Assembly (NCBI GenBank): GCA_964195735.1
Contig: CAXMQY010000021.1
Span: 1 to 63,916 of the forward strand
From: an uncultured Haliangium sp.
Lineage (GTDB): Bacteria; Pseudomonadota; Gammaproteobacteria; GCA-001735895
DNA length: 63,916 nt
Direction: 5' to 3'
The notes beneath the pieces are model-generated. The model had not been told where the DNA came from, did not search any database, and saw only the letters and a program-made list of their open reading frames with translations. The translations under genes were made by a program, and so were the position numbers. The number at the start of each line of letters is the position of its first letter. Position 1 is the first letter of the stretch. Below, piece by piece: positions 1-21,864 of this stretch.

Positions 1-1
1 T

Positions 2-172
2 GCCAGAGTGCAGGAGGATATCGACAACGGAGCTGCTATTGGGGTATCCGGCACACCTGCAGCATTTCTGCTGAGTACTAGCGGTGAGAGCAGGGTGGTT
101 GTCGGCGCACAACCGTTGGCTGAGTTGCAACGGGTGGTTGACGAACTGATAAATAACGGCTCAAATCAATGA
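2..172 (+). CDS. 3' end of a DsbA-family thioredoxin-fold protein (5' end outside the window)
   Basis: The frame is open from base 2 to the TGA at 170-172. The peptide ...AAIGVSGTPAAFLLSTSGES...LINNG resembles the G-T-P-x-F cis-Pro loop region near the C-terminus of DsbA-like proteins. Confidence 0.45.
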   Translation, partial: ARVQEDIDNGAAIGVSGTPAAFLLSTSGESRVVVGAQPLAELQRVVDELINNGSNQ

Positions 173-510
173 GGCTGGAGAAACAGGAAATTAGTTTCAT
201 GAACTACCAGTTCCATCACTCGATTGTACGTCGTCAAACCAGGTTGGACAGGCTGTGCTCTGATTTAAGAGACACTTCAATTCATCGGGTTGTGTAAATA
301 GTTTGGTTATCGTAATGCATTTTTCTGCGCATCGCCGAGGCGTTTTGCATTTCCTTTTCCTCTGATCAGGCACGCTTGCGCGGGTTGGCACGGACACATC
401 AATTCTGACACGCCGTGAGCGCGCGTAACCAGGGAGACCGACCTATCTCGATTAAGTTGTACCTGAAAGGCAGGGTGAGATTATCGTCGCTGAAATCGCC
501 CGATACTCAG

Positions 511-634
511 GTGATCTGCGCCGGGTTGCTCGGGGTCAATATTCTCCAAAGGAGACACTGAAAACTGCATCCTGGGCTTCCGAGAACGGGCGTGAAACGG
601 ACGCCGGATAACTACGGCGAGCAGCCGTTAACGA
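511..634 (-). repeat. Copy E of the cassette-boundary repeat family (attC-like or MITE-like imperfect palindrome)
   Basis: The reverse complement reads TCGTTAACGGCTGCTCGCC...GGCGTCCGTTTCACGCCCGTTCTCGG...CAGTGTCTCCTTTGGAGA...CCGAGCAACCCGGCG. Sixteen nt (619-634) are an exact reverse-complement match to 9532-9547 of copy C. The core is colinear with copies A-D. Confidence 0.7.
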
Positions 635-695
635 ACCAATGCGAACCGAGCAGACCGGATGCTGACTATTACAAATAATTACCTATCGATACCAC

Positions 696-1019
696 TCAGG
701 AAGACTCAATTAGCTCGACACCTGATGTCAGCAAGAACGCTATTCTACGAGCAAGTTCAATTTTATTAAACTCGTCTTCGATAACACCAACACTAGTAGT
801 ACGATTAATGGTCTGGGTTGATTTGCCGTAAGCTCGGTCTAGTATTTCTTTGCAGGCAGATACTCTGGTTTGTTCGCTATCTGCGTTATTGGCTAATCTT
901 GCTAATTCAGCCAAAGCCATAGGGCCATGCTGACCTGCTAACTCTCGAATTGTAGCGGTAGATTTATTGGGAGTACCCGCTACCCGTCCGCCTATTTTTG
1001 CCCCACCTTTCCTTGCCAT
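696..1019 (-). CDS. Small phage-like hypothetical protein (basic N-terminus GGRxxGxPNK)
   Basis: 107-aa ORF. The N-terminus MARKGGAKIGGRVAGTPNKST...ILDRAYGK follows a pattern I associate with small phage or prophage proteins. The family is not identified. Confidence 0.4.
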   Translation of the reverse strand: MARKGGAKIGGRVAGTPNKSTATIRELAGQHGPMALAELARLANNADSEQTRVSACKEILDRAYGKSTQTINRTTSVGVIEDEFNKIELARRIAFLLTSGVELIESS

Positions 1020-1276
1020 GATTACATCTATTTTTGTCTACTTTAGACTGACCGCACATCCGAATATTGCCTCGTTGCAACTGTAACATTATTCTCGTTG
1101 TGTTCTCAAATGGCAGACGCTCGATTTTGAGGGCCAGGAGTCCGAGATGTGCCCACAACGGACACCCGTAGCATTAAGGTGGGAGTCAATCTTCGGCCAA
1201 CAGCGGTCATTCGCGGGGCGGTGCATGAATGACTCTGAAGTGCCCTGGGGAGGCATCTGGAGGCAAATGCAATCGT

Positions 1277-3277
1277 CTAAGCAGGCAGGCCGGCCTTGCG
1301 TAATCCTTCGAGAAATCTTGCCTGATCGTTTGGGTCTTCGAAAATTATCAGCCGCGACCAATAAGCGCGCCAGCGCTCTAAATCGTTCTCATTGGGCACG
1401 CTTGGGTCGCCAGGCGCGAGCTTCCACACTTCTGCCGCAGCCGTCCGGGCCTGCTCGTCACGGCCGAGCTGGGCATAGCAGGCGGCGATCCAGGCTGGAC
1501 GGTGGAGACCCCAGCCACTCATCTTGCCAAAGGCCGTCAGCGCATCCTGGTATTGTCCGGCGATATATTTGGCCATGCCGACGGCGAACAGGCAGCCCTC
1601 TGGCACCAGCGGATTCAGGCGCATGGCCTCGATCGAGCAAGCGACGCTTTCGGACGTACTGTAGCCGACGAGAAACCACGATTTCGCACAGATGTTGTGA
1701 TAGTCATTCGGATTCAGCTCGAGCGCTTTTTCGATATGAACCAAAGCCAGTTCAGTTTGGCCACGATAGTAACAGGCTGACGCGATGGCATAGCGAGCCG
1801 GGCTGTCTGCGTCGTCGAGAGCAACGGCTTTCTGAGCGAGACTATAGGCGCGCTCGAGTGCCTCCTCGGGCACTTCCGACCAACTCGACTCATATTCGTG
1901 CATGTAGCTGATGGACAGCCCTGCATAGGCCGCGGCGTAATTGGGGCTGAGCTCCAGCGCTCGCTCGAAGTGGCGACGTGCTTCGAGTTCGCCATCGTTA
2001 GTGTAGCGGTTCGAACACTGGCGGCCCCGAAGCAGACAGTGGTAGGCCACCCTGTGTTCGACGGGTTTCGTTGCCACACGACGTAACTCCAAATGTTCGA
2101 TCTGACCCGCCAGTGTGGCGACGATGACATTGGTAATCTCGTCCTGGACGGCAAGAACATCGTCGAGATCGAGGTCGTAGTTCTGCGTCCAAAGGCGTTG
2201 ACCGGTCGCCGCGTCGACGAGCTGCGCGGTCACCCGCACGCGTTCACCGGCCCTGCGGACGCTACCCTCAACGACATGGGCAACACCGAGGGAGCGACCT
2301 ATTTCGCGAATATCGGCGGCTTGCTCGCGCGCAATCAGGATCGACTTCACGCCGATCACGAAAATCTCCTGGAACCGCGAGAGGCCGCTGATGACGTTCT
2401 CAGTCAAGCCGTCGGCGAAATAAGATTGATCGAGATCACCGCTCTTATTCTCAAACGGCAGAACGGCGACAGAGGGACCGTCCGGCAGTGGCGGATTCTT
2501 GAATGTATGCTCCAGCAACGAATCAAACTTGTCGTCTGCTGCGGCAACGCGTTGCTGGCGAATTTCGCGATAGAGTGCGATGGTCTCAGGTTCGGGCTCC
2601 ACGCCCAGTTCTCGCTTGAGGATGTCGCGGCAGGTCTCGAATTGCTTCAGCGCCAGGGTTTGGCGTCCCTGCGCGGCATAGGCACGCATCATGATGCGAT
2701 GCGCCGACTCACGCAGCGGATCAAGTGTTAACAGTCTGGCTGCCGTCTCGACGCAACGCTCGGTGTCTCCAACCTCGTCACAATGGGCGATTAATTTGGT
2801 GAACATGTCCGATGCCAGGTGTCGCAGGCGTTCGCGCTCGGCCCGGGCCCAGGCCTCGAACGGGTCCTCCTTGAGGCTGAAACCGTCGAGCAAATCACCC
2901 TTGTAGAGTTCAGCAGCGCGTTTCAGGGCTTCAGGGGTAGCCTCTGCGACGAGTTTCTCAAACATGGCAACATCGAGCTCGATGCCTGGTCCAGCGAGTG
3001 AGATTTGGTCACTGTCAGTGGCTAGATACGCATCCCCACCACTATTCAGGGCCTTCCTGAGTGATGACAGCGATTGTCGCAGATTGGCGCGCGCCTGTTC
3101 TTCGGTGCTGTTGCTCCAGAACAGTTCGGCGAGTTTCTCACGTGACTGGCCGCCGTCACCTCGTAGCGCGAGATAAGCGCCCAGCGCCCGGGTCTTCCTG
3201 GTCATTAAGGTTCGGGCTGTTATACCGTCGCCCGCTATCTTGAGACCATCGAAAAGCGCGATATGCAGTCTTGTCAT
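1277..3277 (-). CDS. SARP/BTAD-family transcriptional regulator fused to TolB-like and TPR modules
   Basis: 666 aa. It has an N-terminal winged-helix plus BTAD region (...LFWSNSTEEQARANLRQSLSSLRKAL...LDPLRESAHRIMMRAYAAQGRQTLALKQFETCRDILKRELGVEP), then PSVAVLPFENKSGD...YFADGLTE (TolB-like N-terminal module), then TPR-like repeats. Confidence 0.8.
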   Translation of the reverse strand: MTRLHIALFDGLKIAGDGITARTLMTRKTRALGAYLALRGDGGQSREKLAELFWSNSTEEQARANLRQSLSSLRKALNSGGDAYLATDSDQISLAGPGIELDVAMFEKLVAEATPEALKRAAELYKGDLLDGFSLKEDPFEAWARAERERLRHLASDMFTKLIAHCDEVGDTERCVETAARLLTLDPLRESAHRIMMRAYAAQGRQTLALKQFETCRDILKRELGVEPEPETIALYREIRQQRVAAADDKFDSLLEHTFKNPPLPDGPSVAVLPFENKSGDLDQSYFADGLTENVISGLSRFQEIFVIGVKSILIAREQAADIREIGRSLGVAHVVEGSVRRAGERVRVTAQLVDAATGQRLWTQNYDLDLDDVLAVQDEITNVIVATLAGQIEHLELRRVATKPVEHRVAYHCLLRGRQCSNRYTNDGELEARRHFERALELSPNYAAAYAGLSISYMHEYESSWSEVPEEALERAYSLAQKAVALDDADSPARYAIASACYYRGQTELALVHIEKALELNPNDYHNICAKSWFLVGYSTSESVACSIEAMRLNPLVPEGCLFAVGMAKYIAGQYQDALTAFGKMSGWGLHRPAWIAACYAQLGRDEQARTAAAEVWKLAPGDPSVPNENDLERWRAYWSRLIIFEDPNDQARFLEGLRKAGLPA

Positions 3278-3471
3278 TCGCTACCCCTAATATTTCTCTC
3301 GTAGTATTGCACGCGAACACCGGATTTTTAGAAATTAACGAACCAAAATTCCATATCGGGCCCGATTTCACGGATTTTTCACGCCCATAAATACGCGGTG
3401 GTAACGCAGCACCGGTATTCTGGTGTTCAGATCAATCTTTTAAATTACAGATTAAATCAATGGAGGTTCAC

Positions 3472-4104
3472 ATGGCCCATGTCGATTGGCAAATCAAGGG
3501 TACCAAGATCAGCGCCTGCAATTGCAACTATGGTTGCCCATGCCAGTTCTACGCACCGCCAACTTACGACAAGTGCGAAGGGCTGGATGTACTCGATATT
3601 GAAGAAGGCTATTTTGGCGACATTGACCTCGGGGGTATACGCGTCCTTATGATCACAGGCTGGCCGGGTGCGATCCACGAGGGCGACGGTGTCGGCCAGG
3701 TGATCGTCGATCAAAATACAAGCGAGGACCAACGTGAGGCGATCTATAAGATCGTCTCGGGCGAGGAACAGGAACCAACCACGGCGTTCAGCATCTACGC
3801 CTCGACCATGCACGAGGATTATGCGTCACTGGTCAAACCGATCGAAATGCGTTACGACCTCGAGGCGCGTACTGCCGGGTGCTTTGTCGCTGGAATTATC
3901 GAGGTTGAAGTTGAGCCAATCCGCAACACAGCTACCGGCGAACCGCACCACGCACGCGTCGTATTACCCGGTGGTTTTGAGTTTAACGAGGCTGAGCTAG
4001 CTAGCTCCACATTTACCGGGTTAGGCGATTGGCAGTTCGACTACAAAGATCGTACCGCCATATTTTCGCAGTTCGCTTACGGTCCACAGGGAATCCTGAA
4101 CTGA
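3472..4104 (+). CDS. DUF1326 family protein
   Basis: The Cys-rich N-terminus (ISACNCNYGCPCQF) is typical of DUF1326, and a DUF2182 gene lies in the same operon. The ATG at 3472 follows a GGAGG at good spacing; the ORF track begins at 3460. Confidence 0.7.
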   Translation: MAHVDWQIKGTKISACNCNYGCPCQFYAPPTYDKCEGLDVLDIEEGYFGDIDLGGIRVLMITGWPGAIHEGDGVGQVIVDQNTSEDQREAIYKIVSGEEQEPTTAFSIYASTMHEDYASLVKPIEMRYDLEARTAGCFVAGIIEVEVEPIRNTATGEPHHARVVLPGGFEFNEAELASSTFTGLGDWQFDYKDRTAIFSQFAYGPQGILN

Positions 4105-4123
4105 CTTTACTGCAAAGGATCAA

Positions 4124-4849
4124 GTGAAAAACGAAGTTCAGAGAGTTGCCCTGGTCACGGGCTCCAACAGAGGCCTGGGTCTGGAAACCTGCCGCCAGCT
4201 CGGCCGTCTCGGCTACAAGGTGATCTTGACAGCGCGGGTCGAGGCCGCCGGCGAAGCTGCGGCTGCAGAGCTGCGAGAAGAAGGTATGGATGCCCAGTAT
4301 CACCACCTGGACGTAACCGACCACGACGAGATTGGGTGTCTCGTTGAATCCCTGAAAGAGGCCCCCGGACGCATAGATGTCCTCGTTGCCAACGCAGGCA
4401 TCTTTCCCGAGGGTGTCAACTATCCGGATATCACTTCCGCCCTGGACGTCGATATGGCAACTGTACGGCTAACACTGGAAACCAACACCCTGGGTCACAT
4501 GGCCCTCTACCAGGCCGTGATTCCTGTGATGCAGGCTCAAGGTTACGGGCGAATTGCCATTCTCTCCAGCGTGGGTGGCCGATTATCGGATATGGGTGCC
4601 GGCATGCCGGGATATCGCATGTCCCATGTGGCGAACAACGCGTTGGCCAGAATTTTCGCGGCGGAGACAGAAGGTGACAACATCAAGATCAACACGGTCT
4701 GCCCGTTCTGGGTAAAGACCCGCATGGGTGGACCTGAGGCGTTACGCGAGGTTGAGGAAGGTGCCGAGACCATCACCTGGCTGGCCACCCTGCCCGACGA
4801 TGGCCCTACGGGCGGCTTCTTCCGCGATAAACAGCAGATGGAGTGGTAA
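4124..4849 (+). CDS. SDR family oxidoreductase (carbonyl-reductase-like)
   Basis: Rossmann motif VALVTGSNRGLGLE; 241 aa; GTG start preceded by AAGGA. Confidence 0.85.
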   Translation: MKNEVQRVALVTGSNRGLGLETCRQLGRLGYKVILTARVEAAGEAAAAELREEGMDAQYHHLDVTDHDEIGCLVESLKEAPGRIDVLVANAGIFPEGVNYPDITSALDVDMATVRLTLETNTLGHMALYQAVIPVMQAQGYGRIAILSSVGGRLSDMGAGMPGYRMSHVANNALARIFAAETEGDNIKINTVCPFWVKTRMGGPEALREVEEGAETITWLATLPDDGPTGGFFRDKQQMEW

Positions 4850-4890
4850 CGCCACAAAACAAATAGAAGCCGAAACACACCAATCGAGTC

Positions 4891-5670
4891 ATGAATAGCG
4901 CAAATACCCTGGAATTGTTCCTCAAACGCGACCGCGGGTTCGTGCTGGCCGCCCTGGCTGGCACAACGGCACTCGCCTGGACATATCTGGTCTCCATAGC
5001 GGCCGACATGGACGCTACTTTGATAAGCGCGATGACCAAAGCACAAGTTGCGCCGTGGAGCGTCCACGACTTCTGGCTGATGTTCATCATGTGGGTGGTA
5101 ATGATGGTGGGAATGATGCTGCCAAGCGCCGCGCCCATGATCCTGCTCTACGCAGCGGTCCGCCGCCGGCAACGAAGGCGCGGCCATGTCTTCGCACCGA
5201 CGGGAGTCTTTGTTGTTGGCTATCTGGTTGCGTGGACGGCTTTCAGCCTTGTCGCTACCACTATGCAGTGGTTGCTCGAACAGGCATCGCTGTTAACGCC
5301 GATGATGATTATCGCGAGCCCTTACCTCGGCGGAGCGCTGCTCATCGCCGCCGGTATCTACCAATGGACGCCGCTAAAACATGCCTGTCTGCAAAACTGT
5401 CGGGCGCCGGCTGAGTTCTTGTCTCGATCGTGGCGAAACGGGACGGGTGGCGCTGTCGCAATGGGTGTCCACCACGGCGCTTACTGCATTGGTTGTTGCT
5501 GGGTGCTCATGGGATTGTTATTTGTCGCTGGTGTGATGAACCTGTTGTGGGTCGCATCCATTACTGCCCTGGTGTTGATTGAAAAGATCGCATCCGGCGG
5601 CCATCTGTTCGCACGATTTGCTGGCGCGATGTTCGTCGCAGCCGGCGTTTACATGATGTTTCACACTTAA
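4891..5670 (+). CDS. DUF2182 family integral membrane protein (predicted metal-binding)
   Basis: Multi-pass hydrophobic 259-aa protein with MMxxMM-rich helices. It shows the usual genomic pairing with DUF1326. Confidence 0.65.
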   Translation: MNSANTLELFLKRDRGFVLAALAGTTALAWTYLVSIAADMDATLISAMTKAQVAPWSVHDFWLMFIMWVVMMVGMMLPSAAPMILLYAAVRRRQRRRGHVFAPTGVFVVGYLVAWTAFSLVATTMQWLLEQASLLTPMMIIASPYLGGALLIAAGIYQWTPLKHACLQNCRAPAEFLSRSWRNGTGGAVAMGVHHGAYCIGCCWVLMGLLFVAGVMNLLWVASITALVLIEKIASGGHLFARFAGAMFVAAGVYMMFHT

Positions 5671-5685
5671 ATCCACACCGAAAAG

Positions 5686-5870
5686 TCGTTCGGCTGGCAA
5701 TTTGCTCGACAAATTGCGAACGTCCGTTCAATGCCTTTCTCTGCCGTAGAAATTATTTCATCCAGAGTCCGGTGTGTGCCGTTCTCCGCCTCCCACCACG
5801 TTTTACTGAGCGTCTCCATTGGAGCAAGTCGAACTAAATAAAGTCAAATCAAAAACAGCAAACAAATGCG
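5686..5870 (+). repeat. Copy A (long form) of the cassette-boundary repeat family
   Basis: The 5' arm TCGTTCGGCTGG starts 16 nt after the DUF2182 stop. The core is GAGTCCGGTGTGTGCCGTTCTCCGCCTCCCAC (5765-5796), and GCGTCTCCATTGGAG lies 45 nt downstream of the first heptamer. Confidence 0.7.
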
Positions 5871-5915
5871 ATCTGCAGTACCGTGTCTTTATCATCCAAT
5901 GCTGGAGAATCCGAT

Positions 5916-6920
5916 ATGGAATGGTTTTCGATAGGCGAGCAGGTATGGTTGGATCAAGTTACTGAGGAAATCATTGAACCAGACCTGCCAATTATCGATC
6001 CACATCACCATTTGTGGAACTATTCCGACGTTGATTATTTGGCGGAAAGGTTCTATCTCGATACAAATTCCGGTCACCGAATCGAGAAAACCGTGTATAT
6101 CCAGTGTGGATCGGAATATCGTGAAGATGGCCCCGAATACCTGAAACCATTAGGTGAAACCGAATTCGTTGTTAGACAAGCCAAGCAAATCGAAGAGCTT
6201 GGAGGTGCAGTCATTGCTGGCATTGTAGGCGATGCAGATTTGCAACTAGGCGGTAAATTAGAAGATGTGTTGGACAAGCATCTAGAGTTAAGTGAAGGGA
6301 GGTTTAGAGGTATTCGTCATGTCGGAGCAAGAGCGAAATTTCCAGAAGCCTTGCATATCCCTGGCGATGCGCTTGAAGGCTTGTACGAAGATACAAAATT
6401 CAGAAATGGCCTAAGAATGCTCGGCCACAAGGGACTAACCTTCGACGCGTGGCACTATCACTACCAGAACCAGGCATTCACGGATATGGCAAGATCAGTG
6501 CCTGAGACCATCTTGATTTTAGATCACTTTGGGACACCCATAGGAGTCGGCCCATACGCGAATCAGAAAAAAGAAATTGTATCGCAACTGAAAAAAGACC
6601 TCAGAGAAATGGCGAAATGTGAAAATGTGGTAGTGAAATTAGGTGGTCTCGCGATGCCAGATAATGGATTCGGATGGGAGAAAAACTCTAGGCCACCAAC
6701 TTCAGATGAATTTGCTGCGGCTCAAAAGGAGTACTATCTCCATGCAATTGAATGTTTTGGGCCAGAACGTTGCATGATGGAAAGCAACTTTCCGGTCGAC
6801 CGGAATTCAATTTCATATGCTGTCTTGTTTAACGGGTTGAAGAAAATTGTCGCTGATTTTTCGGATGCTGAAAAAAGGCAATTATTCCATGATACAGCCG
6901 CCAGGGTATATCGACTTTAA
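5916..6920 (+). CDS. Amidohydrolase-2 family metal-dependent hydrolase
   Basis: The PIIDPHHHLW motif sits near the N-terminus. The ATG at 5916 has a GGAG about 9 nt upstream (ORF track start 5883). The gene is visibly AT-richer than the core genes. Confidence 0.75.
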   Translation: MEWFSIGEQVWLDQVTEEIIEPDLPIIDPHHHLWNYSDVDYLAERFYLDTNSGHRIEKTVYIQCGSEYREDGPEYLKPLGETEFVVRQAKQIEELGGAVIAGIVGDADLQLGGKLEDVLDKHLELSEGRFRGIRHVGARAKFPEALHIPGDALEGLYEDTKFRNGLRMLGHKGLTFDAWHYHYQNQAFTDMARSVPETILILDHFGTPIGVGPYANQKKEIVSQLKKDLREMAKCENVVVKLGGLAMPDNGFGWEKNSRPPTSDEFAAAQKEYYLHAIECFGPERCMMESNFPVDRNSISYAVLFNGLKKIVADFSDAEKRQLFHDTAARVYRL

Positions 6921-7089
6921 TCCCAGCTATTTTTTAAGTGGTGGCATAACTCAATAGTGCGATGAACAAAAGTACTTAGCCTGGATCGAGTGTCCGATAC
7001 GTGCCGTTCTCAGCCTCCCACGATGCGATTTCCAGTGTCTCCTACGGAGAAAACAGACGCTCAGATTCTGTTTGCCAGCGGCGGGAAAG
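6913..7089 (+). repeat. Copy B (long form) of the cassette-boundary repeat family
   Basis: The 5' arm CTTTAATCCCAGC overlaps the amidohydrolase stop codon. The core is GAGTGTCCGATACGTGCCGTTCTCAGCCTCCCAC (6988-7021), with GTGTCTCCTACGGAGA 45 nt on. The 3' arm CCAGCGGCGGGAAAG (7075-7089) is partly complementary to the 5' arm. Confidence 0.7.
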
Positions 7090-7119
7090 TGCTGCGGATT
7101 CAACCGATCGATGCAACGC

Positions 7120-7998
7120 CTACAACGCGGGGAGATTCATGGTTTTTCCGGCCAGTTCGGTGCGTAATTTATTGAGCGATTCAAGATTGGCGATAGTTTC
7201 TTTCGGGTGCTCAGTGGCCAGGCCGACCAGGAGCCCTTCAATAAGCGCCAGGGTGGCGGTATGCATGCTTAGCATATCTGCACGCCCACGCGCAACGGGA
7301 AGGACCAGGTCAACGCGGTTGCGCAATTTTGGGCCCAGCGTATCGGAAAAAAGCATTTTGGTCATGCTGCACCGGTCTGCCTGATTCAACAGCACCGTCA
7401 ACTCCCGGTACACCCGTCCATAAGCAAAGATTACCAGCAGATCACCCTCTCTAAACTTTTGCACGCCATCAGCTAGTAGTAGTCCGGTTTGCGTCAGGCT
7501 TAGCGCATCGATGCCAAAACGGCCCAGCTGGATCGAGAAATATTCCGCCATTGCGCTCGACGGCCCGATACCGAAGATAAACACCCGCCGCGCATCGACA
7601 ATCGACCGAACCGCGCTGCGGAAGTGACTCGGCGTAATGCTACGGCGAAGGTCTTCTAGTGACTTCTGATGAATATCTAAAGTCACGTGGAGGGCAGACA
7701 CCGGGTCATCGCTCACTTCACTGAGCGTTCGAGCCAGTCGACTGGCAGGTGAAATATTCTCTCTAAGCTCAATCGCAAGTGTGCGCCGCAACTCATCCAT
7801 ACCGGTAAAGCCGAGAGATTTTGCGGTACGCACCACGGTCGCATCACTCGTGCCAGTCTGTTTCGCGAGTGCGGCGGCAGAGGCTATAAGAACCTCTTCA
7901 CAGTTCTCCTGAAAATATCGGGCCACACGCTGTTCGGCCGGACTTATCTGGCCCAGGTAAGTATTCAACCGATCTTCGAAGGTAGAAAATACTTCCAT
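7120..7998 (-). CDS. MurR/RpiR family transcriptional regulator (HTH_6 + SIS domain)
   Basis: The N-terminus ...ISPAEQRVARYFQEN...SDATVVRTAKSLGFTG is HTH-like, and the C-terminal half is SIS-like. Confidence 0.85.
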   Translation of the reverse strand: MEVFSTFEDRLNTYLGQISPAEQRVARYFQENCEEVLIASAAALAKQTGTSDATVVRTAKSLGFTGMDELRRTLAIELRENISPASRLARTLSEVSDDPVSALHVTLDIHQKSLEDLRRSITPSHFRSAVRSIVDARRVFIFGIGPSSAMAEYFSIQLGRFGIDALSLTQTGLLLADGVQKFREGDLLVIFAYGRVYRELTVLLNQADRCSMTKMLFSDTLGPKLRNRVDLVLPVARGRADMLSMHTATLALIEGLLVGLATEHPKETIANLESLNKLRTELAGKTMNLPAL

Positions 7999-8110
7999 CG
8001 CACAAACCTCTATTGACTCTCGATGTTGCGTATACTACATCAAATTTGTATTATGTAGCAATTACTACATATGTTTTGCAGCATTCACTGAAACACAGAG
8101 TAAGTGAAAA

Positions 8111-9313
8111 ATGTTCTTTACCAAAAGCGAAGTGAAAATACCGACCGGCATTTGGGCGCTTGGGTTTGTCAGTCTACTCATGGATGCATCATCAGAACTG
8201 GTACACAGTCTCTTGCCGGCGCTGTTTGTATCGCTTGGCGTAGGCATGGCGACTGTCGGTTTTATCGAAGGCGTGGCCGAGGCAACCGCTTCCATTACCA
8301 AGTTATTTTCAGGCGCATTGAGCGACTGGCTCGGTAAACGCAAGATGCTTGCAGTCGTTGGGTATGGCCTGGCAACGATCACCAAACCGCTGTTTCCTCT
8401 GGCACAATCGGCAGAAGTACTGTTTATGGCCCGCTTTATCGACAGGATCGGCAAGGGCATCAGGGGGGCACCACGCGATGCGCTGATTGCGGACATTACA
8501 CCACCCGAAATTCGGGGCGAAGCGTATGGCTTGCGCCAGTCGCTCGATGCAGCAGGTGCATTCATTGGTCCGTTGCTGGCGATCGCCTTGATGGCTTTGC
8601 TGTCAGACAATATAAGCCTGGTGCTATGGTTTGCCCTGATCCCCGCCGTGCTATGCATGGCGTTTCTTGTCTTCGGGGTCCATGAGCCTGACGCGATTCC
8701 AGCTGGCAAAGACAAGGACCACAAGCCTGGCTTCTCTTTGCGAATTACTGATTTAGCGCAAATGGGAAGGAGTTTCTGGTTTATTACAACCATCGGCGCA
8801 TTGTTCGCATTGGCACGTTTCAGCGTGGCCTTTCTCGCCCTGCGCGCGATGGATTTGGGTCTGCCGATCGGCCTGTCACCGTTCGTACTGGTGTTGATGA
8901 GCGTTGTCTTTTCGCTGTCCTCCTATCCAGTGGGACTGCTGGCCGACCGTATCGCGCGGCGTTACTTGCTGGCGCTTGGGTTCGCCACGCTGATCCTCGC
9001 CGAATTGCTATTAGCCAAGGCTACTAGTTATCCCCTCGCAATGGTCGGTGTGGCGATCTGGGGCGTTCATCTCGGACTAACTCAAGGGGTACTTTCAGCC
9101 CTGGTAGCTGACTGTGCGCCAGATCATTTGCGCGGTACGGCATTCGGCATTTTCAATCTTATTAATGGCATCGCGTTACTTTTTGCAAGCCTGGTCGCTG
9201 GGATATTGTGGCAAATGCTAGGCGCATCAACGACCTTCTACGTGGGTGCAGCTTTTGCCGGGATTGCGCTGCTCCTTTTGCTCAACTTTTTCCATTCACG
9301 GCATTGGACTTAA
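8111..9313 (+). CDS. MFS transporter
   Basis: 400 aa with about 12 hydrophobic segments and an MFS loop motif, LSDWLGKRKM. Confidence 0.85.
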   Translation: MFFTKSEVKIPTGIWALGFVSLLMDASSELVHSLLPALFVSLGVGMATVGFIEGVAEATASITKLFSGALSDWLGKRKMLAVVGYGLATITKPLFPLAQSAEVLFMARFIDRIGKGIRGAPRDALIADITPPEIRGEAYGLRQSLDAAGAFIGPLLAIALMALLSDNISLVLWFALIPAVLCMAFLVFGVHEPDAIPAGKDKDHKPGFSLRITDLAQMGRSFWFITTIGALFALARFSVAFLALRAMDLGLPIGLSPFVLVLMSVVFSLSSYPVGLLADRIARRYLLALGFATLILAELLLAKATSYPLAMVGVAIWGVHLGLTQGVLSALVADCAPDHLRGTAFGIFNLINGIALLFASLVAGILWQMLGASTTFYVGAAFAGIALLLLLNFFHSRHWT

Positions 9314-9533
9314 TGCCATGGTAATAAGGTGGCTTTAAATTAATTGGTATTGTGGAGAATTGAACTAAATAAACTGCCCCATAATTCATGCTCATGGTTC
9401 CATCGTCATCTTCCTCAACATTCCAGTGCCATCCCAGCGAAGGCGTGGATCTTGTTATAATGCGCTGTTGTAAGATTCCCGCTTGCCCAAAAATGGCGCT
9501 ATGGTTTCACGATATCAGGGTCAGAGTAGGCTC

Positions 9534-9662
9534 GTTAACGGCTGCTCATCATAATTATCTGGGTGTCCGTTGTGTGCCGAAGATTGCCGCCTGGGTTGCG
9601 CTCATAAGCGTCCGTTATGGGGAAAGCAAACGCATAGGTCTAATGAACCAGCGGCGTTAAAC
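9534..9662 (+). repeat. Copy C (short form) of the cassette-boundary repeat family; the best attC-like copy
   Basis: It runs from 5' GTTAACGGCTGCTCATCA to TGAACCAGCGGCGTTAAAC 3', and these ends are imperfect inverted repeats with bulges. The 3' end GTTAAAC fits GTTRRRY. The core is GTGTCCGTTGTGTGCCG (9563-9579), with GCGTCCG 45 nt on. Confidence 0.7.
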
Positions 9663-9778
9663 GACCCTGCCTCGACGTTCGATATTGTGATTATCCTTGT
9701 TGCCCAGACAGTGCCTGATCCGATCAGTAGCAGACAAGACAACTGATACCGAACATGCCTTTCAGTGCATGATGTTTC

Positions 9779-10717
9779 TCACAGATCCTCGCCCAGGCCG
9801 ACATCGTTACTGGCCACAGCCCACATGGCCTTGCCCTCCTTCTCCGAGAGGCTGACCTCCGTCCTCGTCGCAGATTGGGAAATGTAATTCTCGTCCTTGT
9901 GCTTCTCCTCGTTGTAGATTGTGGTAACTGGCTCGCACAGGAAGTAATAGCCACCGCTCTGACCTTCTACCTCCTTCGAAGTGGCCAGGTGGATCGAGGT
10001 AAGCGCACCTTCCTCAACCGGTATCCCAGATTCATTGGTTCTGCCACCCTTTGTCCACAGGGCAGTGTTGACATTTCCAGGATGGAGCCCATTGCTCGTC
10101 ACCACGGACCCTGCAACCTTCAGTCGGCGGGCAAACTCGTTGGACAGCAGGATATTGGCTAGCTTGCTGCGCCCGTACGCGAACCACTGGTCATAACCAT
10201 CCTCGCTCTCGTGCTCCCTGGTGAGGAGTTCGTAATCGACTGCCTGAGGGTGAAGCCTGTGTGCCCCGGATGCAACATGGACAATACGGCCGGTCGGTCC
10301 CTCTGCGGTATTAATAGCCGGAAGAAGCAGGCGGCAAAAGTAGAAATGCCCGAGGACATTGACCTGCCATTGCTGCTCGAAACCATCACCCGTTTTGCAC
10401 CAGGGCAGAGCCATAACTCCCGCGTTGAGCACGCAGACGTTGAGCGTTCGTTTTGTTCCCAGGAAAGTACCCGCAGCCTTCTTGACCGACTCAAGTGAGG
10501 AAAGGTCGAGGACCAGCGACTCGGCTGTGCTCCCCTTTGGACCGCCCTGAAGCAGGCTCGTTACAGCTTCATCCGCCTTCTTTTGTGAACGAGCGCAGAC
10601 CACGAGGTGGAACCCTTCCTTCAGCAGTCCCTTGCATGTCTCAAGACCGATTCCTGCGTTGCCACCGGTCACTAAGGCGATGGGGGCGGCGACTTCCTTC
10701 TTCTCATCAGTTGACAT
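9779..10717 (-). CDS. SDR, retinol-dehydrogenase/WWOX-like subfamily
   Basis: Contains IALVTGGNAGIGLETCK, NAG and YGRSK motifs. The likely start is the ATG at 10717 (MSTDEKK); the ORF track GTG is at 10753. Codon choice strongly favours AAG and GAG. No Shine-Dalgarno is visible, and the ATG context is CCACCATG. Confidence 0.8.
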   Translation of the reverse strand: MSTDEKKEVAAPIALVTGGNAGIGLETCKGLLKEGFHLVVCARSQKKADEAVTSLLQGGPKGSTAESLVLDLSSLESVKKAAGTFLGTKRTLNVCVLNAGVMALPWCKTGDGFEQQWQVNVLGHFYFCRLLLPAINTAEGPTGRIVHVASGAHRLHPQAVDYELLTREHESEDGYDQWFAYGRSKLANILLSNEFARRLKVAGSVVTSNGLHPGNVNTALWTKGGRTNESGIPVEEGALTSIHLATSKEVEGQSGGYYFLCEPVTTIYNEEKHKDENYISQSATRTEVSLSEKEGKAMWAVASNDVGLGEDL

Positions 10718-10911
10718 GGTGGAGAAGCTAGCATGGCATTTCCCAGTTGTCACTCAGGTAGATGCTCTGAAAAATCCTTGAGCACCACGAGCACTGCTAT
10801 CACATCGTGTAGGAGGGAAAATGGTGGCTGCGCCCCTATTTGAACAGGGGATCCCTTTAATTATGAGTATTCCACCCCATTTCAATTCAATAATAATCTT
10901 AGATTCTGGCC

Positions 10912-11039
10912 TTTATTCGCTGCGAATTATTGAAGCCCAGGCGTCCGCTACGTGCCGAAAGTCGCCTCTCACTTAACTAATTCGAGTGTCTGCTTTGGTA
11001 GGGTATTGGCTGTTTTGAATATGTCCTGGGCGTTTGCTA
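10912..11039 (+). repeat. Copy D (short form, more degenerate ends) of the cassette-boundary repeat family
   Basis: Reads TTTATTCGCTGCGAATTATTGAAGCCCAGGCGTCCGCTACGTGCCGAAAG...GAGTGTCTGCTTTGG...CCTGGGCGTTTGCT. Internal spacing matches copy C (29 nt from arm to core, 45 nt between heptamers). Confidence 0.65.
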
Positions 11040-11171
11040 TCTGGGAAAAGACAGCGTTTGAGTGGTGTGATATGTACATCTTGATGGCCGAAAACTGCTA
11101 TTTTTAGCTGGCACAAATGAATCTAAGTGGCGCGTAGGTAACTGATTAATACAACACCTGGCCGAGATCGA

Positions 11172-11423
11172 TCAGCCCCCTTTGATCGGTGGCAGCAGTA
11201 CAACCTCGTCGTCACTGTGGATGGTGATGTCGGCATAGTCCTCACGCGATACTTTTACATCGTTGATGATCACGATATAGGCTTTTTGCGGGGGAATCGA
11301 CAGCTTGGCCAGCAACGCATCGAGACGCTCGCCTTCCGCGAGCGGAAGGCTGCATTTATTGAACGAACTGCCGGCGGGCAGGAAGTGACGCAGCCCGCCG
11401 AACAGGGTGACCGAAATATCCAT
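11172..11423 (-). CDS. MoaD/ThiS-family ubiquitin-like sulfur-carrier protein
   Basis: 83 aa ending ...LLPPIKGG. It lies immediately downstream of the AOR gene. Confidence 0.7.
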   Translation of the reverse strand: MDISVTLFGGLRHFLPAGSSFNKCSLPLAEGERLDALLAKLSIPPQKAYIVIINDVKVSREDYADITIHSDDEVVLLPPIKGG

Positions 11424-11438
11424 GCGAGGAACTGAAAC

Positions 11439-13247
11439 TCAGTTCAGGTTGAGACGCTGCAGAGTTTCCTCGGTGGGTACGCCTTCCGCATCCCAGCCGT
11501 TCAGCTGGTAGTACTCGGGTAGCATTTCATCGAGCTTACACACCAGGCCCTTGCCGGTGCCGACATCGGCAGGTTCGGTAAGAATGCGCTTCGGAAGCGT
11601 ATCGTCTTTCTTGCCGAGACCTGCTTTCAGGTTGAACAGCTTTTCCAGGTTCCAGATGCGTTCGCCGGTTTGCTGGCTGTCCCAGCTGCCGTCGCAGGCA
11701 CCGTTGACGAGTTCGATGTAATCGTCCATGCCCCAGCCGCAACCGCCCGGAAACAGGCATAGCCCGCTCGAGTCGATGAAGGCGACATCGCGCTGTGATT
11801 CGGCGACGACCTTGGCCTTGCCGGGGGTATCGGTGGTTTCGAAATCGTGTCCGTAGGGGTCGGCGCGCAGGTGACAGGCGCCGCGATTACTGGTTGCGTA
11901 GGCGAGCCCCATACCCTGCATCGAACGCCCGTCATAGGCGGCGAATTCCTGGCCCTTGACCGTCATTGACAAGTCCGGGTGGCCGTACTTTTCGCACAGG
12001 CGCTTCGATCCCATCGCGATGTCGACGCCGAATCCCTCGCCCTTGCCGGTGAGTTCGGCGATCTGGCAAAGCGCCTCGGCCGAGCCGAACTCCAGCTTGA
12101 TGCCGCCGGTAACGCTATCGTCGATCGCGCCAATATCGTAGAGCTCCATCGCCGCGGCGATGGTGCCACCCATTGAAATCGGGTCCATGCCGTATTCGTT
12201 GCAGATGAAACCGGCGAAGGTCGCCGCGTCTATATCGTCGACACCACAGGCAGCGCCCAGCGCGTAAGCCGTTTCATACTCGAGGCCACCGGAGGCGCCG
12301 TGGTACTCGGGCCTGTCCTTGACCGAAAAATGGGTCGGGTCGATCTTGCAGATACGACCGCAACCAATGGTGCAGCCGAAGCAGGCGCCGTTGGTGACGA
12401 TGTTGGTGTGGCCGTTTGCATTCGGCGTATGCATCGCCTCAGGGTTGAGCTTGTTGGCGCCTTCGAAGCGCACGCTACGATTATTGCGCGTCGGCAGGCT
12501 GCCGAAACCGTTGGTGACGTCCATCATCGCGAGCGTACCGTCGCGTGCCATTTCTTCCCGGTCAGTCATGCGCGCATTGACGGCATTGACGATGTCATAA
12601 AACGCCTTGGGGTTTTTGGCGCGTACGCCGCGCGTGCCACGCACCGCGATCGTCTTGAGCTTCTTGGAACCCATCACCGCGCCGACGCCGGAGCGACCGG
12701 CGGCGCGATGCTTGTCGTTGACCACGCAGGCGTAGCGGCACAGGGTTTCACCGGCCTGGCCGATGCCGGCGAAGCGCATCAGCGGGTCGCTGTACTTTTT
12801 GGCCAGCAGGTCCTCGGTTTCCCAGACAGTCTTGCCCCAGATATCGCTGGCGTCGCAGATTTCGACCTTGTCGTCTTCAATGTGCAGGTAAACCGGCTTG
12901 TCCGATTCGCCCTCGATGATCAGCATGTCGTAGCCCGCATTTTTCAATTCGCCACCGAATTTGCCGCCGGAATTGGAACAGGCGATGGCGCCGGTGAGCG
13001 CACCCTTGGTGACCACGGTGTAGCGGCCGCCGGTGGAGGCCATGGTGCCGGTGAGGGGGCCGGTTGCGAAGATCACCTTGTTCTCGGCCGACAGGGCATC
13101 CGCTGCGGGATCCATTTCCTCGTACAGGTACTTGCTGGCGAGCCCGCGAGAGCCGAGGAAAGCCTCTGCCCATTCCATGTTCAGCGGTTCGACATTGCAA
13201 CTACCCGTGCTCAGGTTTACACGCAGAATTTGTTTTTGCCAGGCCAT
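11439..13247 (-). CDS. Aldehyde:ferredoxin oxidoreductase family enzyme (tungsto/molybdopterin + 4Fe-4S)
   Basis: N-terminus MAWQKQILRVNLSTGS; Cys cluster GACFGCTIGCGRIC; DSSGLCLF motif. The ATG at 13247 is preceded by GGAGG; the ORF track start at 13370 is probably too long. Confidence 0.85.
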   Translation of the reverse strand: MAWQKQILRVNLSTGSCNVEPLNMEWAEAFLGSRGLASKYLYEEMDPAADALSAENKVIFATGPLTGTMASTGGRYTVVTKGALTGAIACSNSGGKFGGELKNAGYDMLIIEGESDKPVYLHIEDDKVEICDASDIWGKTVWETEDLLAKKYSDPLMRFAGIGQAGETLCRYACVVNDKHRAAGRSGVGAVMGSKKLKTIAVRGTRGVRAKNPKAFYDIVNAVNARMTDREEMARDGTLAMMDVTNGFGSLPTRNNRSVRFEGANKLNPEAMHTPNANGHTNIVTNGACFGCTIGCGRICKIDPTHFSVKDRPEYHGASGGLEYETAYALGAACGVDDIDAATFAGFICNEYGMDPISMGGTIAAAMELYDIGAIDDSVTGGIKLEFGSAEALCQIAELTGKGEGFGVDIAMGSKRLCEKYGHPDLSMTVKGQEFAAYDGRSMQGMGLAYATSNRGACHLRADPYGHDFETTDTPGKAKVVAESQRDVAFIDSSGLCLFPGGCGWGMDDYIELVNGACDGSWDSQQTGERIWNLEKLFNLKAGLGKKDDTLPKRILTEPADVGTGKGLVCKLDEMLPEYYQLNGWDAEGVPTEETLQRLNLN

Positions 13248-13748: not shown

Positions 13749-14104
<356 letters not shown>

Positions 14105-17924: not shown

Positions 17925-18119
17925 GGCCATTCATAAGAACCTGATTCCAATGTCACTTACATGAGCGACGTATCGGGATCTTGTGATGGCGGCAACTTGG
18001 CAAGCTCACGGCTCGGGGGTCGGGACGACTCCTCCGATTTTGTTAAGTGAGCGCCATTGAGGCCTGATCCCTTTTTACTCATCGAAAGCCTGGCGGCCTG
18101 CCCGAACAACTGCGGGGGT

Positions 18120-19670
18120 CTACATTGCTTGTTGTTTTCTGCTCCACAGGAGCAGCTTTTTATAATGAGGCTGTGCTCGACGAATGCAATCAAGGATGCG
18201 TTTATTGACCCATTTCCGAACAGCAACATGAAGATCCGGGCTTAGATCTTCATTGACCGCAACACTGATAAGATTCAGAGCCTTGCAGGCATCGTTTAAG
18301 TCACCCAGAGCATCTTGTACTTTTTCGAGGGACTGAAGAGCAAGACGGGTCTCTTCATCTTCGGCACCGGGGAATATTTCCACGGTGTAGCGAATTTTCT
18401 TTACCATGATCCGCATGGCATGGACTTCAGTCACCGATCGTGTGGGCGTTAGCGCACCCAGTTTCCCGAGCCGCTTCATATTTGCTTTTAGTGTCGATTG
18501 ACGCTGTTTAGAAATGGATGCTCCACCGGTATTGGGTTGCCTGGCTAGCCAACTCTGCAGATGCAGAATTAACCGTTGTGCTCTCCGTGAACCGTAGGTC
18601 TGTAAGGCTTGCGCAAGTTGTTTTCGATGCATTCGCAGGCACAATCCAACCAACTCGGCGCGCAATTCAGGATTCAGCCCTTTGATTTTCGGTAAGGTGT
18701 CAGTGCGCAAGACGTGCCAGTCCCGACACTCTCCTAATTTGGTCTGAAGCCAGCGCAATTCACCATTCAGTGCCTTGCGGTCCATATAATCGATCTGCCC
18801 TTTGAACGCCCTTAAAAACGCCCGCATCCTGCGGATGGCAACACGAGTCTGATGGATAGCCTCGGGCTTCGCTTTCAAAATCTGCGGACTGTTCGAAAAG
18901 AAATGGTCCATCGCATTAGCCATGGAGACCTGCAGCAATTCACAGGTGTTCATATCGGCAGGTATGACGAGTGGCTTATGTTTGACAGGTTTAAGCGCGT
19001 GGGCCGAACTGATTGCCGCAAACCAACGTTCAGCCTTACTGGAGACAAACTGAATCCAGGAGGTCTTTTCATTTAACCGGGCGAGGAAATCAAACATTCC
19101 TTCTGCCGGACCACTGATCAGTCTCGCCTCGATCTCGGAAATCTGCCCCATCCTCCTGCCGCGGCGCGCACAGGTCACATAGCCGGAATCGTAGACAAGT
19201 TCGAAGGAGGTCGAACGGTGTCGAAGAGGCATCTTTGTTCTTGTGAGTTCTGTCCAGACCAACGGCATGAATTGCCATCGAGCGGATCTCACAATGGACA
19301 GTTGCTTCAACGCATCTTGAACAAACACATTATCAAGCAAGCTATCCTTAAGTGTTCTCGATCCTTCGGTGCGATGCAACACCCCACAGCCAATGCGCTT
19401 CTCAGTTGTCAGGGTCTGCTCAATCCGGCCGCCAGCATGGCGTATCCTCAAAGAACAGCCATTTCTTCTCAACATATAACGGGGCGTATCAAAATAAATC
19501 GACTTTTCAAAAGCCGTTGTTACGTTTCCTGATAATGTGGACCTGACCAGACTGGTAGCGAGCAACTGTGCGGCTGAATCGGCCGGTATCAGGAATTTTA
19601 TCTCCGTAACCAGCGAGGTTCGCAATTCATTTTCGGCAAATGGCGTCACTGCCTTTGTCACTTCGAGCAT
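18120..19670 (-). CDS. CYTH + CHAD domain protein (triphosphate tunnel metalloenzyme-like / polyphosphate-associated)
   Basis: N-terminal ..VTEIKFLI.. resembles the CYTH ExExK strand. The C-terminal half carries CHAD-type helices (IHQTRVAIRRMRAFLRAF, VHAMRIMVKKIRYTVE). Confidence 0.7.
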   Translation of the reverse strand: MLEVTKAVTPFAENELRTSLVTEIKFLIPADSAAQLLATSLVRSTLSGNVTTAFEKSIYFDTPRYMLRRNGCSLRIRHAGGRIEQTLTTEKRIGCGVLHRTEGSRTLKDSLLDNVFVQDALKQLSIVRSARWQFMPLVWTELTRTKMPLRHRSTSFELVYDSGYVTCARRGRRMGQISEIEARLISGPAEGMFDFLARLNEKTSWIQFVSSKAERWFAAISSAHALKPVKHKPLVIPADMNTCELLQVSMANAMDHFFSNSPQILKAKPEAIHQTRVAIRRMRAFLRAFKGQIDYMDRKALNGELRWLQTKLGECRDWHVLRTDTLPKIKGLNPELRAELVGLCLRMHRKQLAQALQTYGSRRAQRLILHLQSWLARQPNTGGASISKQRQSTLKANMKRLGKLGALTPTRSVTEVHAMRIMVKKIRYTVEIFPGAEDEETRLALQSLEKVQDALGDLNDACKALNLISVAVNEDLSPDLHVAVRKWVNKRILDCIRRAQPHYKKLLLWSRKQQAM

Positions 19671-19861
19671 GCGTACACTTTTTGTTTCAACATAAAAACT
19701 TTATAACACTCCTATAAATCAATGGCTTAGTGGATTTTTGTCAAAAGCCCGGTATGGCGGCACTTAATTCTATGCTCCAATAATTGCACAGACATGCCCG
19801 TAAACAAAGGGTATGATAATCAACTGAAAATTCTGAGCAACCAGTGATCCCGGTCAACTAA

Positions 19862-20491
19862 ATGGCGTTTGTGCTAGTGACAAATTCGAAAGGGGGGGTG
19901 GGCAAGACAACGCTCACAGCCAGCCTCGCTTTAGCGGCTCAGAGTACCGGCCACCATGTTGCCTTGATCGACCTGGACCGCCAAAGAAGCCTCTCCCAGT
20001 TTGCCAAAATGGTCGATATTCCCTATCAGACCGGTTTGCAAGTGGGACCAAGAAAATTTGCCAAAAAGAAAGTCGCCGACCTTTTGCTGATCGATACGAA
20101 AGCCACATTGCGTGGTCGTAAGCTCGAGGAGGCGGTCGCACTCGCGGATGCCATCATCGTGCCTTGCACGACCTCGCACGTAGACATCGAAGCAACCTCC
20201 CGATTCTTAAAACAATTGCGCAGGGTCAAGGACCTGAAAAAGGGCCGGGCCCACCTCATTCCTGTACTAAACCGGATGCGAATGAACGCTTCTCTCAGCG
20301 ATCAGATTGCACAAGCCGAATTGAAGCTACATGCACCGATAGGGGCCTGGTTTCCCGCTACCAAGGCATTCGAGGAGGTACTTGAATCAGGTCGCAGTAT
20401 ACAGCGCAGCCGATATGCGCGGCGTAATGAAGTAACTGAAAATCTTCAAAAACTGCTTCATTTATGCGGGCTCAGCCACACGACTCGTTAG
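19862..20491 (+). CDS. Orphan ParA/MinD-family P-loop ATPase
   Basis: Deviant Walker A motif VTNSKGGVGKTT. At 209 aa it is the size of small ParA proteins. No parB-like gene is adjacent. Confidence 0.8.
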   Translation: MAFVLVTNSKGGVGKTTLTASLALAAQSTGHHVALIDLDRQRSLSQFAKMVDIPYQTGLQVGPRKFAKKKVADLLLIDTKATLRGRKLEEAVALADAIIVPCTTSHVDIEATSRFLKQLRRVKDLKKGRAHLIPVLNRMRMNASLSDQIAQAELKLHAPIGAWFPATKAFEEVLESGRSIQRSRYARRNEVTENLQKLLHLCGLSHTTR

Positions 20492-20571
20492 CCGCTGAGC
20501 TAATGGAGCGGTAGATCAATCAAAATGCACTGCTTCGGGTATAGGATCAATAACTGGCGCTCGCTTACGAC

Positions 20572-20592
20572 GGGGACAGACACTTCGCTTAA
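20572..20592 (+). repeat. Single copy of the 20-bp motif GGGGACAGACACTTCGCTTA
   Basis: Identical to the copies at 21865-21905. It abuts the truncated end of a gene remnant. Confidence 0.8.
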
Positions 20593-20712
20593 CATCAGCA
20601 TCACCGTGAAGGAGTAAGTAGAGGAGCCGAAAGACAGCGCGATGATGCGAATGAAAAGCACTTCGTAACCCATCGCCGCAAAGCCACTCAGAAACAGGGC
20701 GATCGAGGAGCG
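20593..20712 (-). pseudogene. Remnant of the N-terminal membrane segment of a spermidine-synthase-like (fused MFS/SpeE-type) gene
   Basis: The minus-strand frame reads IALFLSGFAAMGYEVLFIRIIALSFGSSTYSFTVMLM and then runs straight into the 20-bp motif. A stop lies immediately upstream and there is no start codon. The family assignment is by memory of the FLSGxxxLxYEVxW pattern only. Confidence 0.3.
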
Positions 20713-20902
20713 CCTTCACCTGCTAGATCGAGGGACGCTTGACGAGTTTAATTCCAGAGGTTCTGTTTTAGCGACGAAGGACCACGAGCACATATCAGGG
20801 AAAGACTATAGAGTTTAGTGGGCTACAGGAAGCATAAACACCCTTTTCCAAAAATCCGCTATTTGACACCGGGTCAGTTTTGGAAAATAGTTCCGGGTTA
20901 TC

Positions 20903-21808: not shown

Positions 21809-21864
21809 GCACTTAGTGTAGATGTAATTGATTCATCTGGAGCGTGAAATATAAGGGGCTACGT

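Follow-up and report, generated by a model that had tools for sequence, protein, structure and literature searches.

To our knowledge, no bacterial system other than the integron has been well described in which cassettes of single genes are stored and reshuffled by a site-specific recombinase, and surveys of cassette diversity rely on recognition of attC sites. We examined a family of composite repeats that divides the first 11 kb of a contig from an uncultured Haliangium sp. (CAXMQY010000021.1, assembly GCA_964195735.1; GTDB class Gammaproteobacteria) into gene modules; the window is the whole 63,916-nt stretch analyzed. At a probability of just under 0.6, we read these repeats as double-strand, sequence-specific sites of a ~205-aa tyrosine recombinase that comprises the catalytic domain only and acts in trans, so that the window would hold a recombinase-less array. 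The system looks like an integron-like variant, and literature searches returned no description of one of this kind.

Integrons and the present system share a tyrosine recombinase and arrays of co-oriented sites 0.5-3 kb apart, and the cargo of both is varied, foreign in composition, and in many cases a single gene; some arrays of either system have no recombinase in cis, and the excision product of each would be a circle with a complete site. The systems differ in that the sites here are conserved in sequence and unfolded, with exchange placed in GTGCC(G/C) rather than G/TT, that the ~205-aa recombinase lacks an N-terminal domain and fails the integron-integrase model, and that genes lie in either orientation, with arrays possible on both sides of the recombinase. 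The feature shared with dif/XerCD, loxP/Cre, and FRT/Flp is a site of ~24 bp in total, made of two short inverted boxes around a 6-bp exchange spacer. Acinetobacter plasmid pdif modules are also bounded by simple recombinase sites, but those sites alternate in orientation and are used by the host XerC/D, whereas the sites described here are co-oriented, lie within 70-190 bp composite repeats, and are linked to a dedicated minimal recombinase. Neisserial mosaic elements (dRS3/RS blocks) and minimal mobile elements are likewise composite intergenic repeats, with short inverted boxes around blocks of 50-150 bp, that serve as recombination and integration hot spots between exchangeable gene modules. 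Their sequences are unrelated, however, dRS3 sites serving an IS110-like recombinase from filamentous phages, and their modules are exchanged by homologous recombination after transformation. REPtrons, which consist of a RAYT gene with inverted repetitive extragenic palindromic (REP) sequences and are accompanied by many solitary REPs or REPINs, resemble the present system in having an enzyme gene bracketed by inverted copies of a short intergenic sequence that is multiplied elsewhere. RAYTs, in contrast, are HUH/Y1 single-strand transposases (PF01797), and REPs are 20-40 nt hairpin repeats with a GTAG or CGTC head that are mobilized by such an enzyme (PMC3733652). The repeats described here have no hairpin selection and form co-oriented local arrays, and the associated enzyme belongs to PF00589, not Y1_Tnp.

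A scan of metagenome contigs extended the family to at least 120 contigs. Among the matches listed, more than 230 copies at more than 130 loci were counted, on marine-sediment contigs and in Halieaceae or other gammaproteobacterial metagenome-assembled genomes (loci are cited by L numbers below); a viral contig collection held no repeat copies. The 125-nt family consensus is AATTatCTGAGcGTCCGtTGTGTGCCGTTCGCTGCCTCCCACGATGCGcTTTTCAGTGTCTCCTTTGGAGAAAGCAGACGCTCAGATTtgATTtgTCAGaGGCcGagAAGTGCCCAaAGCaGACa. Elements are 70-190 bp long and are composed of two or three diverged ~45-nt units, each opening with GNGTCYS, plus a spacer of ~90 bp. The right part is an inverted, diverged copy of the left, the right half is wholly missing in about a third of copies, and some copies carry extra units on either side. 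Adjacent copies with a profile hidden Markov model (HMM) score of >=40 were co-oriented in 60 cases and opposed in 6, with a median gap of ~1.3 kb (range 0.6-3 kb), which is the co-orientation and cassette-sized spacing of integron arrays; in the window, copies F, A, B, C, and D share the + strand. The cargo varies widely and is in many cases a single gene; among its genes are GNAT acetyltransferases, SDRs, methyltransferases, LysR regulators, a universal stress protein, a metallo-beta-lactamase-fold protein, a kinase, and a rhomboid protease.

Within the window, the pattern GTCCGNTNNGTGCCG-N6-GCC...AGYGTC matched only copies A-D, with 0.00 matches expected from shuffles, and a profile HMM added copy E at 530-609 (-). 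Copies A-E align without gaps through G.GTCCG.T..GTGCCG-N6-GCC...AG.GTC. An earlier note on this DNA, made from the sequence alone, had described five copies with a colinear, indel-free core and heptamers 45 nt apart (46 nt in E), and had seen none in the remaining 53 kb; these descriptions were correct, the cores of A-E all lying where they had been placed and neither pattern nor HMM finding a repeat beyond 11 kb. A sixth, 5'-truncated copy (F) joins them. The shorter motif GTCCG-N4-KKGCC occurs five times in the 64 kb (1140, 5767, 6992, 9565, and 10943), always on the + strand and always in the array, with 0.95 occurrences expected.

The functional core of the element is proposed to be lox/dif-like. 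On the gene side of the hexamer lies a strong box (GTCCG-N4 or N4-CGGAC), and on its spacer side a weaker arm (TTCGCTGCC or GGCCGAGAA). Sites of the strong/weak type number 146 and weak/strong sites 17, with 2 weak/weak and 2 strong/strong; one of the strong/strong sites is copy F, the left arm of which gets a marginally higher score as the weak type. The full palindrome G.CCG-N4-KKGCC-N5-CRGAC was found 11 times in 557 kb versus 0 in shuffles, and one instance lies in the window at 1140-1163. Two inverted boxes around an exchange spacer of 6-8 bp define lox- and dif-like sites, and the palindrome, together with junctions in the hexamer, conforms to that layout.

Those junctions were located by comparing contigs from different assemblies that are 97-99.97% identical. 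Eleven were examined; nine of them lie at GTGCC(G/C), and one lies at a GGCC variant, CTTCGGCC. Divergence starts right after GTGTGCCG or AAGTGCCC, and in pairs that share the right side the identical stretch starts at GTGCC, which together confine the exchange to ~6 bp. At the junction in L025, where one element's right-part end meets the left-part interior of a second element, the partners share GTGCC only, and homologous recombination and k-mer assembly artefacts are thereby excluded for that junction. A hybrid weak/weak site, GACCGAGAA-GTGCC-GTTCGCTGCC, is present in L025 and L031 where L022 has a cassette end. Whole segments were also found in different neighborhoods, namely a 1393-bp two-gene cassette (L099/L103, 98.8% identical) and a 1.7-kb oxygenase cassette (L059/L109). 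The earlier note had proposed independently acquired cassettes separated by attC-like sites; strain divergence at repeats, cassettes in other neighborhoods, and composition uphold the independent assortment of the modules, and the attC identity did not survive (see below). A single crossover at GGAGAAA|GCAGAC was first favored, as left parts join several right-hand families there, and was abandoned when near-identical contigs mapped the junctions to GTGCC; the GGAGAAA boundary perhaps marks an older, second point of exchange.

A candidate enzyme is encoded in four repeat-bearing contigs as a 205-aa PF00589 protein that aligns to the Xer-type catalytic domain only, its nearest solved relatives being the catalytic domains of XerC-like proteins, XerD, and XerH. 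The protein retains motifs that, read from sequence and family knowledge, presumably hold the catalytic R, H-x-x-R, H, and Y. Against the integron-integrase model TIGR02249 it scored 20.1 bits (cutoff 265), and its 205 aa compare with ~320 aa for IntI. In the closest clade (79-100% identical), a repeat lies within ~500 nt of the gene in all seven independent contexts, and in four of these (L052, L133, L213, and L220) at <=45 nt from the open reading frame (ORF). Flanks were retrieved for three further close relatives, and in each a repeat lies ~30-45 nt from the gene. The L213 recombinase is bracketed by inverted repeat copies, and array orientation flips at the recombinase in four contexts. 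L133 (85% identity) has three + copies, the recombinase, and then seven - copies; each interval holds about one gene, and TGGCC replaces GTGCC. At L213:1-5607, the recombinase context adjoins phage-like genes (small and large terminase subunits, DUF3987, and a serine resolvase).

More distant relatives from Pseudomonas and Stutzerimonas (70-73% identity), which have no arrays and are labeled "tyrosine-type recombinase/integrase" and nothing more in their records, lie between inverted sites located ~81 nt upstream and ~24 nt downstream of the gene. These sites read G.CCGCTTT|TGGCC|GGTTAGCGACC, with a variable box-like outer arm and a conserved inner arm, an architecture that is the same as that of the repeat core. 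Among 70 loci, the upstream site was found at 31, the downstream site at 34, and both at 25. One member, on the 506-kb Pseudomonas aeruginosa megaplasmid pPA942-IMP45 (L212, 474575-475195), is 95.6% identical to the Stutzerimonas query L149:10001-10612 and directly follows a ptxD/phn phosphite-phosphonate operon and a LysR gene.

From the junction positions, hybrid sites, association, and site homology, we infer that this recombinase catalyzes the exchanges and forms circles, and in which direction the reaction runs. The core would comprise a GTCCG box, 4 nt, and a 5-6 bp crossover hexamer GTGCC(G/C), with either a second inverted box (N4-CGGAC) or the weaker inner arm TTCGCTGCC on the other side; one related lineage would use TGGCC. 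Each gene-bearing segment is bounded by outward-facing strong boxes and direct hexamer repeats, an arrangement from which hexamer-by-hexamer recombination would release the segment as a circle with a perfect GTCCG-N4-GTGCCC-N4-CGGAC site. After such excision the array would retain a weak/weak hybrid site, and the reverse reaction would insert cassettes. A wider proposal, which we hold only tentatively and with the odds somewhat against it, is that this is a second gene-capture system independent of integrons, in which a recombinase flanked by outward half-sites would build cassette arrays, sometimes on both of its sides, through lox-like double-strand recombination at GTCCG-N4-GTGCC(G/C), with cassettes excised as circles that bear a perfect palindromic site, while the same family would be mobile as a 0.75-kb element in Pseudomonas, Stutzerimonas, Methylococcales, Thauera, and megaplasmids.

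In the main rival explanation, the ~90-bp spacer between hexamers is itself mobile, as a gene-less miniature of the recombinase module that inserts into palindromic GTCCG-N4-core-N4-CGGAC targets in intergenic DNA, the cassettes being ordinary intervening DNA. The ~0.75-kb Pseudomonas module has inverted inner arms and the core at its boundaries and variable, box-like outer flanks, as expected of an element that hunts for target sites; these inner arms recur in the gene-less spacer, which has a direct repeat of the hexamer on either side, and other insertion sequences also land in repeats (L035 and L103). A miniature transposable element with inverted-repeat ends (MITE) would show terminal inverted repeats, a target-site duplication, copies scattered in either orientation, and a related autonomous element; here the 90-bp spacer lies between inner arms and directly repeated hexamers, and there is a related recombinase module, but the copies cluster in one orientation, and in many of them an end is missing. 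Empty palindromic targets are nevertheless almost absent from the 557 kb of flanking DNA, the 60:6 co-orientation and tight clustering are unexpected for scattered insertions, whole gene segments occur in different neighborhoods, and about a third of copies have no right half. A circle of 90 bp, moreover, is a poor recombination intermediate given the flexibility of DNA. We therefore regard the mobile-spacer explanation as unlikely, and an ordinary MITE, like the alternative offered in the earlier note of a MITE family that targets gene ends, seems to fit poorly with copies that are clustered and co-oriented.

Several observations weigh against the proposal that the repeats are recombinase sites. 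The eleventh junction (L221/L222) lies off the hexamer, at the start of a truncated copy, and breakpoints inferred from identity tend toward the edges of conserved blocks. Left parts join at least four alternative right-hand families at GGAGAAA, and these joins point to a second exchange point. Gene orientation relative to the repeat is near random, the upstream gene being co-oriented in 66 cases and opposite in 67, unlike in integron cassettes; the position directly 3' of a gene, given in the earlier note for every copy, is not a rule across the family. L220 keeps one array orientation on both sides of its recombinase. Among 79 genomic relatives of the enzyme, repeats occur only at the closest, L133; four long loci of distant relatives contain no repeat arrays, most relatives outside the closest clade are array-less, and the recombinase could be a mere passenger carrying its own ends. 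The 64-kb window itself encodes no recombinase of this family, the one weak match, ORF 55705-56622, being taken to be a housekeeping Xer recombinase; it also contains no integron-integrase candidate, in agreement with the earlier note. Finally, the data are mostly short metagenome contigs.

Canonical attC sites in a cluster of attC sites lacking integron integrases (CALIN), serving as folded single-strand substrates of an IntI from another locus, would account for the co-oriented arrays, the cassette-like spacing, the GNAT and other typical cassette genes, and the GTTAAAC and TTAAC at the 3' and 5' ends of copy C. That reading is already contradicted, and we give it almost no weight: the sequence is conserved and structure is not, the opposite of attC, and the exchange point is GTGCC, not G/TT. 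DNA folds of nine copies gave z-scores of -0.95 to +0.98 against dinucleotide shuffles, so that no copy is extra stable and the paired R and L boxes sought in the earlier note gained no support from folding. RNAalifold returned no consensus structure on either strand for 100 full copies. Mutual information with average-product correction over 209 distinct copies showed neighbor correlations only and no long-range covariation, and none was found within elements between the variable hexamer and the opposite arm. The consensus inverted repeat CTGAGCGTCCG / CAGACGCTCAG pairs at the rate predicted by column composition, and a small TCTCC-TTT-GGAGA hairpin likewise pairs no more often than predicted. 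The motifs GTTRRRY and RYYYAAC, whose R' and R'' fit in copy C had been remarked on, have no positional enrichment among 117 copies. The outer inverted arms described in the earlier note are not family features either, the GTTAAAC of copy C aligning with GGAAAGT in copy B. Rfam gave no repeat match (whole window at the gathering threshold; 1-12500 at E up to 10), although Rfam 15 may lack an attC model.

A decayed coding origin, such as gene ends duplicated by successive island insertions, had been raised as a caveat and has a similarly negligible probability. The minus-strand consensus translates as RLLSPKETLKIASWEAANGTHRTPR*, and copy A has an intact 51-aa ORF, but B, C, and D have stops in the frame of that translation. 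The peptide reading, striking in five copies, did not hold in 89 copies that the search pattern had not selected, where mean column information modulo 3 was 1.05, 1.10, and 0.90, i.e., without codon periodicity. Among 126 ungapped copies, no frame is open throughout; the best, open in 99, is on the other strand.

A ~600-aa protein family accounts for 34 of the 427 ORFs in repeat-bearing loci. Its members combine a BTAD, winged-helix, or adenylate/guanylate-cyclase-like N-terminus with TPR repeats and often have a repeat on both sides. Examples include the window protein at 1277-3277 (-), L022:1331-3121, L025:7950-9728, L133:15334-17379, L213:7846-9627, and 30 others, and the family also adjoins the recombinase in several contexts. 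Its enrichment raises the alternative of a regulatory role, with the repeats serving as operator arrays or as conserved 3' or 5' untranslated regions to which the neighboring BTAD- or cyclase-TPR proteins bind. The GNGTCYS heptamers 45 nt apart would suit this, as BTAD/SARP regulators bind direct heptamer repeats. Most cassettes, however, including four of the five in the window, have no such gene, and repeats occur at both 5' and 3' gene ends in either orientation. Regulation would also leave the single-hexamer junctions and the homology to recombinase-flanking sites unexplained, and we consider it very improbable.

The copies and modules of the window are listed in Table 1. Copy E is a lone inverted copy on a different right-hand family, R4, and its R4 junction recurs in L088 and L002. 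The R4 sequence (ATTGACCCCGAGCAACCCGGCGCAGATCACCTGAGTATCG..., window 399-576) is a repeat family itself, present several times (L088:119-226 and 804-1023; L002:737-778 and 1300-1407), and one of the at least four alternative partners that meet the left part at GGAGAAA. The idea that E and F are halves of one element split by inversion was rejected, since the right flank of E is a conserved family in L088 and L002. A degenerate short match between 9349-9373 and 5818-5842 (ATTGTGGAGAATTGAACTAAATAAA versus ATTGGAGCAAGTCGAACTAAATAAA) suggests that a further, highly degenerate copy end may lie downstream of the MFS gene, with a right flank as unusual as that of copy A.

Table 1. Repeat copies, intervening modules, and neighboring landmarks in the window (GC3, G+C content at third codon positions; pattern, the search pattern given in the text)
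Feature	Positions	Strand	Extent or content	Scores or composition	Landmarks
Copy E	541-640	-	Left part only	nhmmer E = 2e-08 and 4e-09	5' extension GTTAACGGCTGCTCGCCG; GTCCG box 602-598; degenerate core ACGCCC 593-588; second unit ends GGAGAA at 546-541, then joined to R4, down to ~399
Module E-F	641-1112	-	One 107-aa ORF (696-1019) without family match	GC 0.44, GC3 0.33	
Copy F (sixth copy)	1113-1209	+	5'-truncated, right part only; weak/strong (attL-like)	Extended HMM 65 bits, E = 2.8e-18	R1-like GCAGACGCTC 1114-1123; complete palindromic site GTCCGAGATGTGCCCACAACGGAC (GTCCG-AGAT-GTGCCC-ACAA-CGGAC) 1140-1163; extension module up to CTTCGGCC 1191-1198
Module F-A	1210-5721		BTAD+TPR protein 1277-3277 (-), DUF1326 3460-4104, SDR 4124-4849, PpoB2/DUF2182 4891-5670		
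Copy A	5722-5834	+	Left part only; strong/weak	HMM positions 17-91, E = 6e-17	Degenerate upstream unit GTCCGTTCAATGCC 5722-5735; main site GTCCGGTGTGTGCCG 5767-5781, core GTGCC 5776-5780; second unit GAGCGTCTCCATTGGAGCAA 5808-5827, after which family similarity stops; pattern 5767-5814
Module A-B	5835-6985	+	Single amidohydrolase_2 gene 5883-6920	GC 0.445, GC3 0.42	
Copy B	6986-7094	+	Full length	HMM E = 2.5e-29	Site GTCCGATACGTGCCG 6992-7006, core 7001-7005; second unit 7033-7052; right part ACAGACGCTCAGA... from 7053; second core-like GTGCT 7090-7094; pattern 6992-7039
Module B-C	7095-9528		Divergent pair: RpiR regulator 7120-7998 (-), MFS transporter 8111-9313 (+)		
Copy C	9529-9684	+	Full length, diverged	HMM positions 2-145, E = 3e-24	5' extension CGTTAACGGCTGCTC 9533-9547; site GTCCGTTGTGTGCCG 9565-9579, core 9574-9578; second unit 9606-9623; degenerate right part 9624-9662; pattern 9565-9612
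Module C-D	9685-10919	-	Single SDR gene 9779-10753 (-)		
Copy D	10920-10998	+	Left part only, last of the array	HMM positions 3-81, E = 1.9e-13	Site GTCCGCTACGTGCCG 10943-10957, core 10952-10956; pattern 10943-10990 with 1 mismatch
RNase P RNA	13749-14104		Bacterial, class A (Rfam scan)	335 bits	

The BTAD+TPR protein of module F-A belongs to the ~600-aa family that is strongly enriched beside repeats. The earlier observation that the modules differ in composition is borne out by GC3, which is 0.57-0.68 in the modules other than the amidohydrolase (0.42) and ORF 696-1019 (0.33), versus 0.71-0.76 in core genes. The RNase P RNA lies ~2.7 kb past the array end and, together with what appears from ORF sizes and order alone to be a cell-division (dcw) gene cluster at ~24-40 kb, places the array in a core chromosomal neighborhood. 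Further low-GC stretches at 18000-23000, 41000-43000, and 46000-49000 (0.49-0.53 versus ~0.60 nearby) are repeat-free. Exact-protein look-ups of window genes returned short contigs only or no match. Logan contig L008, separately assembled from public reads, equals window 7049-9561 (the RpiR-MFS module) at 100% identity and ends inside copy B and 3 nt before the core of copy C. Its ends were not counted as junctions, as they miss the hexamers and are probably repeat-induced graph breaks; many metagenome contigs likewise end in repeats, and the recombinase gene almost always sits on a 1-3 kb contig. Unrelated insertion sequences lie in or beside repeats at L035:1151-2762, L103:3230-4399, L023, L061, L070, and L005:1095-2555. 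Their types are DDE_Tnp_1/DUF772, IS30-like, and, judged by eye, one IS110-like transposase sequence. The insertion in L035 is mid-element, between GAGAGC and AGAC.

If the repeats are indeed sites of the small tyrosine recombinase, current tools would be missing a mobile cassette pool in abundant coastal-sediment Gammaproteobacteria. A 205-aa recombinase with a 24-bp site would also make an attractive small tool for genome engineering. The finding would further give a role to a widespread, sparsely annotated recombinase family that has members on Pseudomonas aeruginosa megaplasmids.

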